From NCBI GenBank assembly GCA_963697275.1, contig CAVONF010000003.1, positions 68,028 through 132,027 on the forward strand: DNA of 64,000 nt. Direction: 5' to 3'. Shown piece after piece: positions 5,753-64,000 of this stretch; within the stretch, counting starts at the first letter, position 1; each line of letters opens with the position of its first letter. Under the pieces are notes generated by a model. That model was not told the origin of the DNA and made no database searches. It saw only the letters and a list, made by a program, of their open reading frames with translations. This DNA is from an uncultured Chloroflexia bacterium. Its GTDB lineage: Bacteria > Chloroflexota > Limnocylindria > Limnocylindrales > CSP1-4. Both the position numbers and the translations under genes were made by a program.

Positions 5753-6604
5753 CAGCCCTTGACCGCTCCTTCCACGAAGCCCTTGACGATGAAGCGCCGG
5801 AAGATGATGGCCAGCAGCACCACCGGGATGCTGGCCAGCACCGCCGCCGCGAGCATCTCACCGTAGAGCGTCTGGTACTGCCCGGAGAACTCGGCGATGG
5901 CGATGGGCGCGGTCTTGATGTCGACCCGCGTGAGGATGATGGCGAAGAAGAACTCGTTCCAGGCCTCGATGAAGGCGAAGACGCCGGCCGCGAACAGCGC
6001 CGGCAGCGAGATGGGCAGGACGACCAGCCGGAAGGTCTGGAAGGTGCTGGCACCGTCGACGGCCGCGGCGCGCTCCAGCTGCGGCGGGATGGACTCGAAG
6101 AAGCCCTTGAGGATCCAGATGACGACCACCAGCGTGAAGGACAGGTAGGTCATCGACAGCGCCGAGGTAGGTGTCGACCAGGCGCAGCTGGCTGAAGACG
6201 ATGAAGAGCGGGATGGCGATGACGATGCCCGGGAACATCTGCGTGGCCAGCACGGCCAGCAGGATCTTGTTGGCGCCCGGCACCCGAAGTCGGGCCAGGG
6301 CGTAGGCGGCCGCGGATCCCAGCGACCAGCGACAGCGACGCGGTGAGCGTGGCCACGACGGCCGAATCGAAGAGCGCGTCCGGCAGGTTGCCCCGCGTCG
6401 ATCAGCACGTCGACGTAGTTGTCCAGGCGTGAAGTTGGAGAGCGACAGGTCGGGCGGCGTCTGGGTCAGGGCGCTGGTGGGCAGGAGGCTGGTGACGACA
6501 CCCCAGGCGATGGGTCCAGAGCCAGCACCAGGAAGACCGAGCAGCGCGAAGCGCGACACGCCCAGGTGCGACCGAGCGCGCCGCGCGCGAGGCCGCGGGG
6601 TCAT
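5752..6604 (-). pseudogene. sugar ABC transporter permease (MalG/UgpE-like), frame-disrupted
   Basis: The C-terminal half, with the EAA loop ERAAAVDGASTFQTFRLVVLPISLP, is in 5752..6408. The N-terminal TMs (AYALARLRVPGANKILLAVLATQMFPGIVIAIPLFIVF) are in the 5858..6805 frame. The ATG at 6604 overlaps the upstream stop (ATGA). Confidence 0.75.
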
Positions 6605-58744: not shown

Positions 58745-59230
58745 CTACTCGGAAGCGGCGTGCGCCAGGCCCCTGACGATGGCTTCCTGCTCCTCGCTGG
58801 AGAGGTTGCCCTGCAGGACGCGAAGGTACTCCTCCTCCTCGGCGACATGCGTCTTCACCAGGGCGTAGAAGGAGATGATGAGCCGGCGCAGGCCGAGTGC
58901 GTCCGTCGGGTTCAGCGGGCCCTTCTCTACGCGCTCCATGTACTCACCCATCTTGTCGATGAGCTCACCCAACTGGGCGTGCTCACGCTTCATGGGTGAC
59001 ATCGAGTGGCGGTTCTGCATGAGTCGTTCGAGCTCCGGGTAGACGTTCTCCTCGACGACCTTGACATGCGGCCACAGGGTCCCGGTGATGAAGGCGTACT
59101 CCTTGCCGAACTGCGTCGCGAACTCCGGCGGCGGCGGGCGCAGCTCGAGCATGTCGGCCAGTGCGGGCAGGCGGTCGACGTGCTCGCGGATGCGCTCATG
59201 GTGCTCATGACCGGTGTGTGGCAATGTCAT
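58745..59230 (-). CDS. hemerythrin HHE cation-binding domain protein
   Basis: MTLPHTGHEHHERIREHVDRL.., HVKVVEENVYPEL, MKREHAQLGELIDKM and THVAEEEEYL are four-helix His/Glu-rich motifs. Confidence 0.7.
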   Translation of the reverse strand: MTLPHTGHEHHERIREHVDRLPALADMLELRPPPPEFATQFGKEYAFITGTLWPHVKVVEENVYPELERLMQNRHSMSPMKREHAQLGELIDKMGEYMERVEKGPLNPTDALGLRRLIISFYALVKTHVAEEEEYLRVLQGNLSSEEQEAIVRGLAHAASE

Positions 59231-59452
59231 CACTGACCTCATCGCTGGGCCCGACCGTCCCCTGGCCGGAGCGTTCGTTCGAGCGGCGACCATGGCACGA
59301 CCGCCTCTTCAGAGCGTGCCCGCAGAAGGGTCGCCTCGACAGGGCCGAAGGGACCGTATTCGGCCCGGCCGGCCACGCGGGGCTACGAGGCGCAGTCGCC
59401 CGCCAGTGCGGAGAACACCAACCCCGGCGGCTCTGCTCTCGTGCACGTGACG

Positions 59453-59492
59453 AGGCGGCTAGCTCAGCTGGTTAGAGCACCTGCTTGACATG
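59453..59492 (+). pseudogene. tRNA-Val(GAC) 5' half only (acceptor 5' strand, D arm, anticodon stem 5' strand and loop), copy A
   Basis: AGGCGGC-TA-GCTC-AGCTGGTTA-GAGC-A-CCTGC-TTGACAT. No complementary anticodon-stem 3' strand, T arm or GCCGCC acceptor strand follows within 300 nt. Confidence 0.7.
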
Positions 59493-59743
59493 TAGCTCCC
59501 AGCAAGCGCCGTGGGTGTCCGGCCTCCGTGGTCGGGCCGACATGCGACAGCCGGACAGTCATGCGGTGGAGTCGAGCGCCTCACCGGGCGCCTGCGGACG
59601 AAGCGCCCGGCGCGTCCGCCCGGCGCGCGGCGGCCAGCACTCGCCAGGCCCGGCAGCGAAGGAAGCTCGCGGACCCGGCTCTGGGCTCCCAGCGTCGCTG
59701 GTGGTGGCCTGCGGGCCTCGGTGTAGGGTAGTCTGTCGCCGGT

Positions 59744-59765
59744 AACCGTACGGATCTGTACGGTT
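59744..59765. promoter_or_regulatory. perfect inverted repeat AACCGTAC-ggatct-GTACGGTT, candidate AbiEi operator
   Basis: Read directly. It ends 35 nt upstream of the abiEi ATG (59801). AbiEi antitoxins are known autorepressors that bind inverted repeats. Confidence 0.45.
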
Positions 59766-59800
59766 GACGGGAATGGGACACCCCGACAGGACCGGATCAG

Positions 59801-60538
59801 ATGAGTTGCGCCGACATCCCCGAGTGGTACCTGCGTCACCGCATCCCGGTGATCAACACCCGGTCAGACACCTGGCGCGAAGTCAGTGACCAGCTGCTTC
59901 CGCCCGGATACGAGACCACGACCTGCCTGCGGCGGCTGGCTGACGCCAAGAGGGTCCGACAGCTCGCCCGCGGGCTGTGGCAGGTCCTCGATCCAGCGCG
60001 CGAACCGCCCGCCATCGCGGTGGCGGACGCCGTCTTCCGCGATGTCGCGCACTACCTCACGACGGACGCCGCGCTCGCAGCGGAAGGCCTGATCGACCAG
60101 CCCGTCCCGGTGATCACGGTCGTGGCGCGGAAGAAGCCGCGACCGCTCGCGGTCGGACCGGCCACCATCCGAGCCGTCTGGATGGACGAACGAGACCTGG
60201 CCGCTGCCGAGGTCGTGCGCACGACCCGCGACGGTTACCAGGTCACGCTCGCATCGCCGACACAAGCCATCGTGGATGCGCTGGCCGAGCCTCGGTGGAT
60301 GACCCACGGCTCCCTGCTCCCGGAGGTGCTCCAGCAGCTGCCCGCGACGGACATCGAAGCAGCAGCCGGGCGATCGCTGGCCCGCAGCAAGGCGGCCGCG
60401 GCGCGACTCGGGTACTGGCTCGAAGGCACCGGGCTGCCCATCCCCGAGCCACTGGCTTCGTTCGTCCCCAACGCCAGGACCGAACTGGTGCCCGGCCGTC
60501 GCGGCCCGTACTCCACCCGGTGGCGTGTCTATGGCTGA
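59801..60538 (+). CDS. abiEi: type IV toxin-antitoxin system AbiEi family antitoxin
   Basis: Intact 245-aa ORF directly upstream of, and overlapping, an AbiEii-type gene. It has an N-terminal wHTH-like region (LRRLADAKRVRQLARGLW). The call rests mainly on gene pairing and size. Confidence 0.65.
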   Translation: MSCADIPEWYLRHRIPVINTRSDTWREVSDQLLPPGYETTTCLRRLADAKRVRQLARGLWQVLDPAREPPAIAVADAVFRDVAHYLTTDAALAAEGLIDQPVPVITVVARKKPRPLAVGPATIRAVWMDERDLAAAEVVRTTRDGYQVTLASPTQAIVDALAEPRWMTHGSLLPEVLQQLPATDIEAAAGRSLARSKAAAARLGYWLEGTGLPIPEPLASFVPNARTELVPGRRGPYSTRWRVYG

Positions 60539-61367
60539 GCGACACACGCTCGACACCATCGAAGCGGCCTTCATCGAGGCGCGTCAGGCCGGTGATGGCG
60601 CGGCGATGGCGCGACTGCGGAACGAGGAAGCCTGCGTGGTCCTGTTGACGCTCCTGGGTCGGCTGGCTTCGGACGATGCGACGTTCATCCATGACGTCGC
60701 CCTGAAAGGCGGGATCCTCATGGCCGGTGAGCTCGCGAGCCCGCGCGTCTCGGCGGACATCGATGCCACCACCGGCGCGATGCGGAGGATCGATCCCCAA
60801 CGCATCGTGGATGATCTGCGTCGTCACGGCCGCGACCTCGACGTGCGGCGGCGCGCGGAGGACACCCGGACGACCGGAGGGACGATCGTCCATCTGTCCT
60901 TCGCGTCGCGCACGGATGGCGGCGCCGCCAAGCTCGAGGTGAGCGTGCGGGAGGATCTGGTCTTCGCCGTCCGTGACGCCTATTTCGACGTGACCGACCT
61001 TGGCATCGAGGCGTTCACCCTTCCTGCCATCGCCGAGGTCGAGATCGTCGCCGAGAAGCTCCGCACCCTCGTGCAACGCGCACAGCCCAGGGACCTCTTC
61101 GACCTCCGACTGCAGCTCACCGATGCGGGCTGGCATCTCGACCCAGTGCAGCTCCGCGAGGCTGTCGACGCCAAGCTCTCGATCACGCGGTACAAGCGAT
61201 GGAAGCCCGGGCTGTGGCGCACCCACCTTGATGAGATCGGGGCCATCTGGGAGGCTGTGCTTGCCGAGTGGATCGAGCCTGGGCGCATCCCCTCGTTCGA
61301 CGAGTCCGTCGTTCTCGTCGGGAGGCGCCTGCGAGAACTCGGACTGGATCGAACCGGCGCGTCCTGA
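60531..61367 (+). CDS. abiEii: nucleotidyltransferase AbiEii/AbiGii toxin family protein (DUF1814)
   Basis: ALKGGILMAGELASPRVSADIDAT and AQPRDLFDL match the KGG..R.S.DID and RD(L/Y)(F/Y)DL motifs of the family. The ATG at 60531 gives an ATGGCTGA overlap with the abiEi stop (the tracked GTG at 60525 is also possible). Confidence 0.75.
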   Translation: MAERHTLDTIEAAFIEARQAGDGAAMARLRNEEACVVLLTLLGRLASDDATFIHDVALKGGILMAGELASPRVSADIDATTGAMRRIDPQRIVDDLRRHGRDLDVRRRAEDTRTTGGTIVHLSFASRTDGGAAKLEVSVREDLVFAVRDAYFDVTDLGIEAFTLPAIAEVEIVAEKLRTLVQRAQPRDLFDLRLQLTDAGWHLDPVQLREAVDAKLSITRYKRWKPGLWRTHLDEIGAIWEAVLAEWIEPGRIPSFDESVVLVGRRLRELGLDRTGAS

Positions 61368-61450
61368 CTACTCGCCGGTGTCCCTCCGTCGCGGGGCAAG
61401 GGTGGCCATCCTCACCCAGCCCTGCGTGCGCGGCTCACCTCGCATACGCC

Positions 61451-61906
61451 CTACTGCTCGTAGTACACCTCCGTGCTGGCGATCCTTCGCGGCGAGATGG
61501 TGCTGGCCCCGTTCATCTCGAACGGGATGGCTCCCTCGACCGGCAGCATACGGAGGAAGGTGAAGTCGCCACCGAGGATGTCACCGTCCTGGTCGCGGTA
61601 CACGGCCATCACCTGGACACCCTCCTGCGGGTCGTTGAACAGGCTCTCCACCGTGCCGGTGGTCCGTGGCCCCCTGCCCCGGTGCTGCGTCCTGACCTTG
61701 TCGAAGGCAAGGTCCCCGGTCACGTAGTCATAGACGACCCAGTACCTGAGCCCCTCCTCGATGGCGGCGTCCACGCTCGCCGCTCCCTTGGTGCCGGGGA
61801 TGACGCCGACGACAGCTCCCGTCTGTCCGGGCAGCAGCGTGATGAACTCCATCTCGGTCGCGACGGGGACGCCCTCGTCGTCGAGCACGTCGATGCGGAC
61901 CGGCAT
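61451..61906 (-). CDS. hypothetical protein (convergent with abiEii)
   Basis: Protein-like composition (IDVLDDEGVPVATEMEFITLLPGQTGAVVGVIPG..QVMAVYRDQDGDILGG) suggests a beta-rich fold. The start is uncertain: the ATG at 61906, or 61981, which would abut tRNA-half copy B. Confidence 0.45.
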   Translation of the reverse strand: MPVRIDVLDDEGVPVATEMEFITLLPGQTGAVVGVIPGTKGAASVDAAIEEGLRYWVVYDYVTGDLAFDKVRTQHRGRGPRTTGTVESLFNDPQEGVQVMAVYRDQDGDILGGDFTFLRMLPVEGAIPFEMNGASTISPRRIASTEVYYEQ

Positions 61907-62015
61907 GGCCCATGCCGACCAGCGGCTCGGGTTCGGGTTGCGCCGAGGCTTCGGCCGGCAGTCGGGAGAGCCCACGAACACAGCCCGCGGCGGCTCTGCT
62001 ATCGTGTCTGGCCTC

Positions 62016-62056
62016 GGGCGGCTAGCTCAGCTGGTGTAGAGCACTTGCTTGACATG
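62016..62056 (+). pseudogene. tRNA-Val(GAC) 5' half only, copy B
   Basis: GGGCGGC-TA-GCTC-AGCTGGTGTA-GAGC-A-CTTGC-TTGACAT, then unrelated sequence and a terminator-like hairpin. The upstream 19 nt (cggcggctctgctAtcgtg) also match copy A. Confidence 0.7.
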
Positions 62057-62095
62057 CGTCCCGCCGAATGCGGCGTAGGTGTCGCACGACGACGA

Positions 62096-62118
62096 GCCCT
62101 CACCGATGCGGTGAGGGC
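62096..62118. terminator. 9-bp perfect GC-rich hairpin (GCCCTCACC-gatgc-GGTGAGGGC) followed by CTTGTTAT
   Basis: Read directly. It lies 40 nt after tRNA-half copy B and 177 nt beyond the stop of the minus-strand M15 gene, so it could act in either direction. Confidence 0.45.
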
Positions 62119-62294
62119 CTTGTTATGGGCTGAACGTTATCGGCTGAATTGAGCTTGGACGTGCCTGATCGCCACTCTGCCGGGTGGACGAGACACATCG
62201 CTAGCGGTGGTGCCGGCGGACGGAAGGGACCGGGTCCGGCGGCCGCGCAAGGACTACGGGTCGTGGCCGTACGCGCTACAACAGTGCCCGTGGG

Positions 62295-63195
62295 TCAGGG
62301 CGGCACCCTTGGATAGACACATCCCCCTATCTTGACGGTGTCTCGAACCGACGGCGGATCATGCTGCCAGTGCCACGGCTCCTTCCAGTACGGGCTGAAG
62401 CCGTAGTCCTTCGCATGAGCAACGAGCCAACTGTAGAGCCAAGTGCGTTTCCAGCTTGCCTTCTGCGAACTGTTCGCCGCGTACGTCGTCTTGCCTTCCG
62501 TCGTCATGAAATCAATGGCCAGCCCCTTGGTATGCAAGCTGTACCCAGGGATTGCTTTCCACTTCATCAGTCTCCGAGCGAGGTATTCAACGGCAGCCTT
62601 GCCGTAGGCGCCGCTCTTCAGGGCGGCTCTGGCTTTCTTGGTGCGCTCGAAATGCGTCGCGTAGGCGTTCTTCCAGTTGCTGGACTCGCGCGCCAGACCG
62701 GTGTAGGTCCTCTTAAATCCAATCGTCTTAACGCGGAGCGCCTTTGCGCGCGCCTTCCTGTCAAGGTTGTCCTTGGCCTGCGCCAATCTCAAGTCCGCCC
62801 TCGCAGCGGATAGCAGGTCCCGCGCGTCCCCCTCGACGCCGGCACGCATCTGGAATCCAGTCGATCCGCCGACCTCAGCGAGCTCGTCCTTCGACAACCC
62901 AGGCGAGAACACCCTCTTCGGATTGCTTGCGGTCAGCTCGAGCTGCCTGTCATAGACCGCACGTCGGAACGCCGTCTCCTCGGGGGTACCGAGCTTCCCC
63001 AACTGGCTCATAAATCGCACCCTCTGGAATCCTCGGCTCCTTCGGTGACTTCGGTCTGCGAGCCGGGGCCCTTTGGAGCCCATACCCAAACCCAGGCGCC
63101 GAGCGAACCAGTCGCTGGACGGCGCGGTTCCCGGCGGTCGACTGCAAAGCCAGCAGTTCCGCGGCACGCAGCGCATGCGTCGTCTCTGGACGCAT
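62295..63195 (-). pseudogene. M15 (VanY / D-Ala-D-Ala carboxypeptidase-like) peptidase with an N-terminal LQSTAGNRAVQRL leader, one frame change near 63020
   Basis: The C-terminal domain has YSLHTKGLAIDF and EPWHWQH (SxHxxGxAxD / ExWH) in ORF 62295..63272. The leader MRPETTHALRAAELLALQSTAGNRAVQRLV plus a P/K/R-rich linker is in ORF 62950..63306. GC content is visibly lower than in the flanks. Alternatively this is two overlapping genes, with an ATG at 63011. Confidence 0.6.
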
Positions 63196-63562
63196 GCGCC
63201 ATGGGACACCGGCGTGAGCTCCTCCGTTGGAGTCATGCCGTGGATGCTGCGGCGACGGGGCCGTTGCTGCAAGTCTGCGCACTCCCGTCGCGGGCGCCCA
63301 GTCCAACTAGATCCCCCTTACAATCATGGCCGCAGTATCGGCTTGAACACGCATACCCACGGGGCATGTCTGCCTGCCCGAACGGACCTCTAGCGGCCCC
63401 TCTGGCGGGCAGCCGAAAGGAAACGGAAGTCCTTGGCCAGCGTGGTGGAATCCCATGGTTGGTGTCACAGCGCGTCATCATCGCGTCCGATTCCTAGCTC
63501 GCCAGGAGTAGCACCGGGGCCGCCTAATCTCATTCGGTGACTGCTTCGAGCATAGCCTCCCG

Positions 63563-63766
63563 ATGGGAGAGGGGACTCGACTCGTCTTCCTCGGGGCTTC
63601 GCTGCCCATGGTCATCGAGACCACGCCGGTCCACGGGCAGAACTCCTTCGATGACTTCCTCGCCGAGGTCCAGCCCGTCATCGACTCACCGAACTTCGAC
63701 GCAGGCGCGTGGGGCCTCCCAAGGTACGCGGCAGTCTGGAGCGGTGGCCGAAACGCCGGCGTCTGA
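63563..63766 (+). CDS. small hypothetical protein
   Basis: 67-aa ORF with balanced, non-shadow composition (VIETTPVHGQNSFDDFLAEVQPVIDSPNFDAGAWG). There is no clear RBS and I recognise no family. Confidence 0.25.
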   Translation: MGEGTRLVFLGASLPMVIETTPVHGQNSFDDFLAEVQPVIDSPNFDAGAWGLPRYAAVWSGGRNAGV

Positions 63767-63875
63767 CGATCACGCCTGACGCTCGACTTCGCCACTGCCG
63801 CCGACGCCAGCACGTCGCCGAGGCCGCCTCGTGACCAATCGCACGTCCTCTGGTATCGTTCGTCGTCTCAGGCAC

Positions 63876-64000
63876 CTAGTGTCTCGATTCGCTGATCGCT
63901 GGCGGCTTGCGGACCGCCTTGGCGAGGATTCTGGTCGGCGGTCTTGACCCAGGTGAAGGGGCTGGCACCCTCGTTCCATCGGCGGGTGAAGGCGTCGATC
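63876..64000 (-). mobile_element. IS630 family transposase, C-terminal end (continues beyond the window), with an apparent 1-nt insertion
   Basis: The minus strand reads IDAFTRRWNEGASPFTWVKTADQ, then goes out of frame. Removing one A in cagAAtcc restores ILAKAVRKPPAISESRH-stop (stop at 63876-63878), the usual IS630 transposase C-terminus. Confidence 0.6.

Follow-up and report, generated by a model that had tools for sequence, protein, structure and literature searches.

Displaced 5' halves of tRNA-Val(GAC) at an island-bearing locus in a Ca. Limnocylindria genome and probable serial integration into the tRNA gene

The window analysed here is a stretch of 64,000 nucleotides (nt), C3:68028-132027, from an assembly of a soil bacterium of 2.1 Mb that comprises 10 contigs, has a G+C content of 70% and is 63% complete. 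Matches in public records assign it to Chloroflexota, Ca. Limnocylindria, an abundant and uncultured class of soil and freshwater. Near its right end, two copies of the promoter and 5' half of a tRNA-Val(GAC) gene, copy A and copy B, bracket a cassette encoding an AbiE toxin-antitoxin pair, and further accessory genes follow copy B and continue beyond the window (Table 1). The two stretches of accessory genes are referred to below as island 1 (59493-62015) and island 2 (from 62057).

Two tRNA-Val(GAC) 5' halves and the chromosomal locus

The two promoter-bearing 5' halves that an earlier, sequence-only reading had described lie where it placed them, and both match the intact tRNA-Val(GAC) gene of the assembly (C9:4-80), copy A over nt 2-40 (97.4% identity, E 1e-13) and copy B over nt 1-41 (97.6% identity, E 5e-13), so the likeness is not due to chance. 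The copies differ from each other by two substitutions (A/G at position 1 and C/T at position 29) and one indel; the reading had the 1-nt indel right and had counted a single mismatch. In both copies, as in 59 other displaced copies, the identity block extends as far as TTGACATG(C) in the anticodon loop. The reading had similarity cease altogether at this point. The main identity does stop there, but a weaker motif common to both copies goes on, aGCGcCGTgGGTGTC versus tGCGgCGTaGGTGTC (GCGnCGTrGGTGTC), which is a conserved motif of the element arms described below and is present in dozens of other genomes.

No tRNA was called in the window by ARAGORN or, at gathering scores, by Rfam, and Rfam gave none in 59300-62400 at E<=10. 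Neither copy thus has a 3' half, as the sequence-only reading had supposed, and neither was matched as a cloverleaf with a T arm and the 3' strand of the acceptor. A sigma-70 scan found no promoter but is of little weight, as its TTGACA/TATAAT consensus may not match the promoters of a high-GC host; the predicted promoters of both copies are called from conservation upstream of intact tRNA genes. The -10 element of copy A is mutated, with TCTCGT (59437-59442) versus the genus consensus TATCGT.

The intact gene at C9:4-80, three bases from the start of its contig, is the only tRNA-Val(GAC) found by ARAGORN across the assembly and is therefore likely to be essential; glgX and then treS-mak lie downstream of it. 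In the same-genus relatives G002, G004 and G001, which lack the island segment and from which the earlier reading had expected the insertion point to become visible, the locus is indeed uninterrupted, running from SGNH genes through a small open reading frame (ORF), the hemerythrin gene (-), ctctgcTATCGTg and tRNA-Val(GAC) to glgX, with the hemerythrin orthologue (73-79% amino acid identity) directly upstream of the intact tRNA gene. In the studied genome, the hemerythrin gene and its conserved terminator lie directly to the left of copy A, which indicates that the original promoter and 5' half are those of copy A. Given the contiguous locus in relatives, the sequence of at least 8.2 kb from 59493 to the end of C3 is read as an insertion at the anticodon loop, and the empty site would correspond to 59492 joined straight to CAAGAGGTCACTGG. 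A single tRNA-Val(GAC) gene stands at this locus in all 13 same-genus relatives compared, with no fragment in the 18 kb inspected upstream of it in each.

A third copy, joined to the genuine 3' half, had been predicted downstream of position 64000. Such a copy does exist, intact and before glgX, although on C9, at the very beginning of the contig, and not on C3. The strand orientations of C3 and C9 agree with the gene order of the relatives, and the order and orientation of the fragments on C3 and the intact gene on C9 are taken from synteny with G002, G004 and G001 only; no overlaps between contig ends were found within the assembly. Another contig, C6, outside the window, ends at the last base of tRNA-Cys(GCA) (its last 77 bases, preceded by a Phe-Gly-Gln-Cys tRNA cluster), and this second contig break at a tRNA gene suggests that the C6 end may be another variable integration site.

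Conserved arms and the integrase of the wider family

The unit around copy B (61980-62170, about 190 nt) consists of the promoter, the 5' half, a terminator-like hairpin and two TTATsGGCTGAA repeats, and shares 84-94% identity with about 25 units from other Limnocylindria metagenome-assembled genomes (MAGs) and with 10 metagenome contigs. Past 62148-62170 the sequences beside such B-type units are unrelated, and the arms are conserved although the cargo differs completely. The hairpin was located by a terminator scan and hairpin energies at 62096-62118, followed by CTTGTT, and the direct repeats are TTATGGGCTGAA (62123-62134) and TTATCGGCTGAA (62137-62148). The arm of copy A is of a different subtype from that of copy B. 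Here, 59454-59514 is 93% identical to locus L051 and 85-88% identical to L078, L091, L062 and L055, and a degenerate arm motif, GTCATGCGGTG at 59558-59568, has GTTATGCGGTG as its counterpart in L051.

All arm types follow a common plan. About 13-22 nt past the junction stand bases resembling TGCGGCGTAG; a GC-rich hairpin with a subfamily-specific stem sequence comes next, at about +35 to +65, and then a T-rich run. Each arm also has one or two TTATsGGnTGAA motifs, and a single such motif is found in the P arm of elements that carry an integrase. Because the subfamily hairpins are misaligned, no meaningful consensus emerged from RNAalifold on 27 arms, which also gave no conserved fold spanning the unit; folding of single arms reveals the hairpin, which is conserved with differing stem sequences between subfamilies. 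It may act as a terminator shielding the island from the displaced tRNA promoter. The upstream regions supplied by elements are of two types, the TTATCGGGTGAA type and the native-like type, and a native-like promoter is always present in B-type units.

A scan of one genome per species, with a 5' half not followed by the proper anticodon-stem strand as the query, found 56 loci of promoter, 5' half and arm, all in Chloroflexota/Limnocylindria MAGs. At the hemerythrin/glgX locus, arrays of 2-8 units occur in G031 (at least eight), G032 and G035, and in G033 and G034 two halves precede the intact gene at spacings of 0.95-4 kb. Of 38 further MAGs, 23 have a half and an intact copy on the same contig and strand, separated by 0.9-31 kb.

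A tyrosine recombinase (PF00589 with a SAM-like domain) lies inside the interval, at the intact-tRNA end, in 10 of the 17 MAGs tested. In seven elements, the intact tRNA is always the distal copy, and the integrase ends 77-140 nt from it on the opposite strand. These seven integrases have 311-349 amino acids (aa), with a SAM-like N-terminal domain and PF00589, share 38-96% identity with one another, and find their best NCBIfam matches in XerC, XerD and XerA, under the cut-offs of those models. As its recombinase, the family is predicted to use a Xer-like tyrosine integrase of about 320-350 aa, whose gene lies immediately 5' of the rebuilt tRNA and points away from it. In the same-genus relative G011, the intact tRNA-Val is immediately preceded by a frameshifted family integrase (L036, 16891-17858 in the 20-kb region as oriented), which accounts for the non-native upstream sequence of G011 and probably for those of G016 and G017. 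No displaced 5' half was found within 18 kb upstream in G011; either the element is large or its far junction has been lost.

A contig of 13.8 kb from IMG/VR (L127) bears a 44-bp direct terminal repeat made up of CAG and tRNA nt 1-41, which ends at the same anticodon-loop base as the identity block of the displaced copies. Its cargo includes a family integrase, an AAA_25 replication-type protein and a MerR-DUF433/PIN-like toxin-antitoxin pair. Either L127 was assembled from a circle, or it is an element cut precisely at the attachment (att) repeats, and in both cases it provides the predicted attP of a complete element, with P arm, 5' half and P' arm. It also carries its own tRNA-Val(CAC) (5882-5960, -), beside the tRNA-Val(GAC) 5' half in the att site.

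Cargo of the two islands

The cargo of island 1 is abiEi, abiEii and one minus-strand ORF. The first two genes are adjacent, with a 14-nt overlap, and are predicted to form a type IV AbiE toxin-antitoxin pair. AbiEi proteins repress their own promoter, and the palindrome AACCGTAC-N6-GTACGGTT, 35 nt 5' of abiEi, is likely to be an AbiEi operator. Judged from these features, AbiE is ordinary cargo with its own predicted operator. The minus-strand ORF has no match in Pfam, NCBIfam or PADLOC, and its G+C content at third codon positions (GC3) suggests that it is coding. In 400 genomes of the class, the AbiE homologues found elsewhere are distant and none lies beside tRNA halves; a lookup of contigs encoding AbiEi gave no match on record.

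Island 2 begins with a VanY/M15 peptidase gene, followed by an IS630 element and a beta-lactamase-family gene in two pieces. The peptidase gene has a long in-frame upstream extension (62295-63272, -) of doubtful reality. An IS630 copy in G032 (88% identical; L103 7752-8900, G032 C1) is inserted in the first bases of a displaced tRNA half, and this insertion replaces the promoter of that half. The beta-lactamase-family gene (PF00144; 65460-66643 when the numbering of the window is continued, L001 8488-9671) is split into pieces of 126 aa and 236 aa; the G031 array has an intact counterpart of 438 aa with 96% DNA identity, and PF00144 genes are also found in several other B-type cassettes. Island 2 contains two copies of a short repeat (about 50-110 nt; 65161-65213 and 66878-66987 on the same scale) that matches the G031 and G032 arrays at 80-88%, which suggests a small mobile or regulatory repeat. 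The cargo segment 65021-66737 (1.7 kb, beyond the window) is 96% identical to G031, with syntenic flanks at 70-75%, and this sharing is read from the sequences as a sign of recent exchange.

Table 1. Features at the tRNA-Val(GAC) junctions and in the islands, in window coordinates
Feature	Position	Strand	Evidence or remark
Hemerythrin-domain gene, chromosomal left flank of the tRNA-Val locus	58745..59293	-	Pfam PF01814
Copy A upstream block cggcggctctgctctcgtg	59425-59443	+	TCTCGT at 59437-59442
Putative displaced native tRNA-Val promoter region	59425..59452	+	aligns with the upstream region of relatives' intact tRNA-Val genes
Copy A, tRNA-Val(GAC) 5' half, nt 1-40	59453..59492	+	G1A, T29C; candidate attL of the array
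Island 1 left arm (predicted A-type P' arm)	59493..59570	+	GC hairpin ~59516-59557, -21 kcal/mol
Candidate AbiEi operator, perfect 8-6-8 palindrome AACCGTAC-GGATCT-GTACGGTT	59744..59765		read from sequence; in abiE's own promoter region
abiEi, antitoxin/regulator	59801..60538	+	PADLOC AbiEi, E 6e-12
abiEii, DUF1814 nucleotidyltransferase toxin	60525..61367	+	Pfam PF08843, E 8e-17; PADLOC AbiEii, E 3e-14
ORF of 151 aa (176 aa from an upstream GTG), last gene of island 1	61451..61906	-	GC3 0.91
Island 1 right arm, native-like tRNA promoter probably carried by the element	61980..62015	+	TATCGT 62000-62005; homology begins 61980-61995
Copy B upstream block cggcggctctgctatcgtg	61988-62006	+	TATCGT at 62000-62005
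Copy B, probable element-supplied 5' half, later displaced	62016..62056	+	nt 1-40 plus an inserted G in the D loop
Island 2 left arm (predicted B-type P' arm)	62057..62170	+	TGCGGCGTAGG, hairpin, two direct repeats
VanY/M15-type peptidase, island 2	62295..63011	-	Pfam PF02557; G+C 58-63% versus ~70% for the genome
IS630-family element end, continuing to ~65019 outside the window	63876..64000	-	DDE_3 and helix-turn-helix domains, two overlapping frames

Serial integration, competing explanations and known systems

The tRNA-Val(GAC) gene between hemerythrin and glgX has very probably served integrative islands as an attachment site on at least two occasions. The elements would carry a promoter and tRNA nt 1 to about 41 on one arm of their own attachment site; each integration would leave the resident promoter and 5' half at the opposite end of the inserted DNA, and the tRNA would be rebuilt from the promoter and 5' half of the element joined to the chromosomal 3' half. 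Copy A would then be the original chromosomal half (attL of the array), and copy B the half brought by island 1 with the AbiE cassette and displaced on the arrival of island 2, while the working gene would now be the one at the start of C9, with the newest island nearest to it. Sequence comparison shows the split target and the uninterrupted site of relatives, as well as the family with its predicted integrase, the conserved arm and the 44-bp block. Serial integration by elements that carry a replacement promoter and 5' half was among the proposals of the sequence-only reading, and the third copy, the empty site, the related elements with an integrase and L127 bear it out. By analogy with the anticodon-centred class of Islander islands, the anticodon loop is the most likely site of strand exchange; the data bound the crossover to 3' of tRNA position 17, within the 44-bp block, since the displaced halves of G033 have T17 and its rebuilt gene has C17.

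Substitutions are present in 7 of 59 displaced halves versus 0 of 30 intact genes, and indels also occur in displaced halves; TATCGT is missing in 7 of 19 displaced native-type promoters versus 0 of 9 intact genes. These counts point towards relaxed constraint on the displaced halves and promoters, at a statistically weak p of ~0.06-0.09. Copy A has three changes and copy B one, and the greater decay of copy A fits its being the older junction.

Several observations weigh against serial integration. No integrase lies in 59493-64000 or in the 3.7 kb of C3 that follow the window, where the sequence-only reading had expected a tyrosine integrase to be found; Phage_integrase matches in the assembly are two only, both Xer-type and both in the middle of C7. 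The checked arrays and intervals with B-type units in G031, G032, G035, G036 and G059 have no integrase either, nor do short metagenome contigs with such units. Internal units bear the native-like promoter and not the TTATCGG-type arm of the integrase-bearing elements, for which the model gives no account. The cassette of abiE and the minus-strand ORF is absent elsewhere in the 400 genomes of the class (best matches 67-72%), and there is thus no direct sign of recent movement of island 1. The join between C3 and C9, finally, is deduced from synteny and strand and is unsequenced in this 63%-complete assembly.

Since neither island carries an integrase, both may be decayed remnants or integrase-less cassettes moved in trans. 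A recurrent mobility gene was sought in the integrase-less arrays by all-against-all ORF clustering and Pfam, which gave diverse cargo only and no recombinase. It is possible, and put forward here as a tentative and rather doubtful extension, that B-type units, each with a conserved arm of about 110 nt, bound an integron-like cassette-exchange system, in which integrase-less cassettes accumulate at an essential tRNA gene and pass between Limnocylindria lineages through Xer-like integrases that sibling elements supply in trans. In such a system, the tRNA would stay functional only if every cassette supplied a working promoter and 5' half.

tRNA genes are often repeated in tandem and both copies retain a promoter, as might be found in the remains of an ancestral tandem tRNA-Val(GAC) array that had lost its 3' halves, which the sequence-only reading had also considered. 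The single gene without fragments in the 13 same-genus relatives refutes this model; moreover, both copies break at the identical nucleotide, run into arms conserved in unrelated genomes and have foreign cargo between them, and the probability of array decay is close to nil. An assembly chimera through the repeat of 40-190 nt, with the halves on separate molecules, is very improbable as well. The MAG does consist of 10 contigs, with C9 breaking 3 nt before the tRNA and C6 ending exactly at a tRNA gene, but dozens of independent MAGs show this architecture, several of them within contigs of 0.4-2 Mb, as do separate metagenome contigs, and the differences among copy A, copy B and the intact gene indicate distinct loci.

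The lack of an integrase in the studied genome and in the other B-type arrays would also be expected if the islands had come as a block by homologous recombination through conserved flanks (tRNA half, hemerythrin, glgX), the arrays having been built elsewhere; the units, about 190 nt long and about 90% identical, supply homology, and one cargo segment is 96% identical to G031. The first making of every junction would still require a site-specific event, however, and flanks that are 25-30% divergent between cargo-sharing genomes are a poor substrate, so block import is unlikely. We likewise think it improbable that the units are expressed as a tRNA-half-like RNA of about 105 nt serving as a leader, a regulator or a decoy for tRNA-targeting toxins such as AbiEii, a role that may coexist with that of an att site. 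Their promoter is like that of the working gene, a hairpin and a T-rich run follow 80-105 nt downstream, and about 190 nt are conserved at 84-94% across species. Yet displaced promoters are often mutated, as is the TCTCGT of copy A, and displaced halves carry substitutions and indels (counts above), no covariation is present outside the hairpin, abiE has its own predicted operator region, and AbiE homologues elsewhere lack the unit; the tRNA-like leader that the sequence-only reading had tied to AbiE thus finds no support.

With serial integration as the preferred reading, the locus would offer a clear example, with many members, of a mobile element and not the chromosome coming to provide the promoter and first half of a tRNA, and would constitute a hot spot of accessory genes (defence, cell-wall enzymes, transporters, STAND NTPases) in Ca. 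Limnocylindria. The arrays would account for the breaking of Limnocylindria MAG assemblies at tRNA-Val(GAC), and islands of this kind escape finders that demand an integrase or scan for 3' fragments only. If integrase-less cassettes do move in trans, the locus would represent a natural gene-capture platform, and the short Xer-like integrase with its 44-bp site could then serve as a compact site-specific tool.

The islands at tRNA-Val(GAC) belong to a known but uncommon kind, and the mirror-image use of a tRNA gene is rare and already described, as the Islander islands with 5' fragments, the literature on archaeal elements and the tycheposon islands indicate. Hudson, Lau and Williams (2015, PMC4383910) count 125 tandem arrays in Islander, and of its 3919 islands, 3760 have 3' fragments and 159 have 5' fragments. 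In a review of archaeal elements, 5'-distal recombination is described as considerably less frequent, with a reference to Zhao and Williams (2002, J Bacteriol 184:859, cited in PMC6563490). As in Islander islands, an element with a tyrosine integrase would split the tRNA gene at an anticodon-centred sublocation and restore it from its own sequence, the displaced fragment would mark the far end of the island, and tandems would arise by reuse of the rebuilt gene; the uninterrupted target in relatives, which Islander looks for, is likewise found here. Unlike Islander islands, those of the window carry no integrase, and they would therefore fail the Islander integrase filter; here the arm of the element brings the tRNA promoter together with the 5' half. 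No paper on a tRNA-Val family in Limnocylindria was found in a literature search that was small and not aimed at this point.

Integron arrays, and likewise cis-mobilizable elements (CIMEs) and mobilizable genomic islands (MGIs), resemble the present islands in consisting of integrase-less cargo units that share a conserved recombination site and are stacked at one locus, with the recombinase presumably encoded elsewhere; here its action in trans is a supposition. Unlike integrons, the locus has no intI/attI platform and no folded attC-type site, the recombination site being the tRNA gene; the family integrases score 39-45 bits versus a cut-off of 265 for the integron integrase, Xer models match them best, and the boundaries are tRNA halves. 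Islands specific to dusA reportedly supply a replacement 5' end. Integration into the 5' end of a gene, as described by Farrugia et al. (2015, PMC4482086), is shared with the present islands. Their target is protein-coding, unlike a tRNA gene, and their integrase family probably differs. Tycheposons of Prochlorococcus have a host of another phylum. In the present family the integrase is Xer-like, and the part of the tRNA that is duplicated is the 5' one. The likeness lies in the successive integration at one tRNA gene, in which newcomers push older elements deeper and partial tRNAs and degraded elements are scattered in the island (Hackl et al., bioRxiv 10.1101/2020.12.28.424599).

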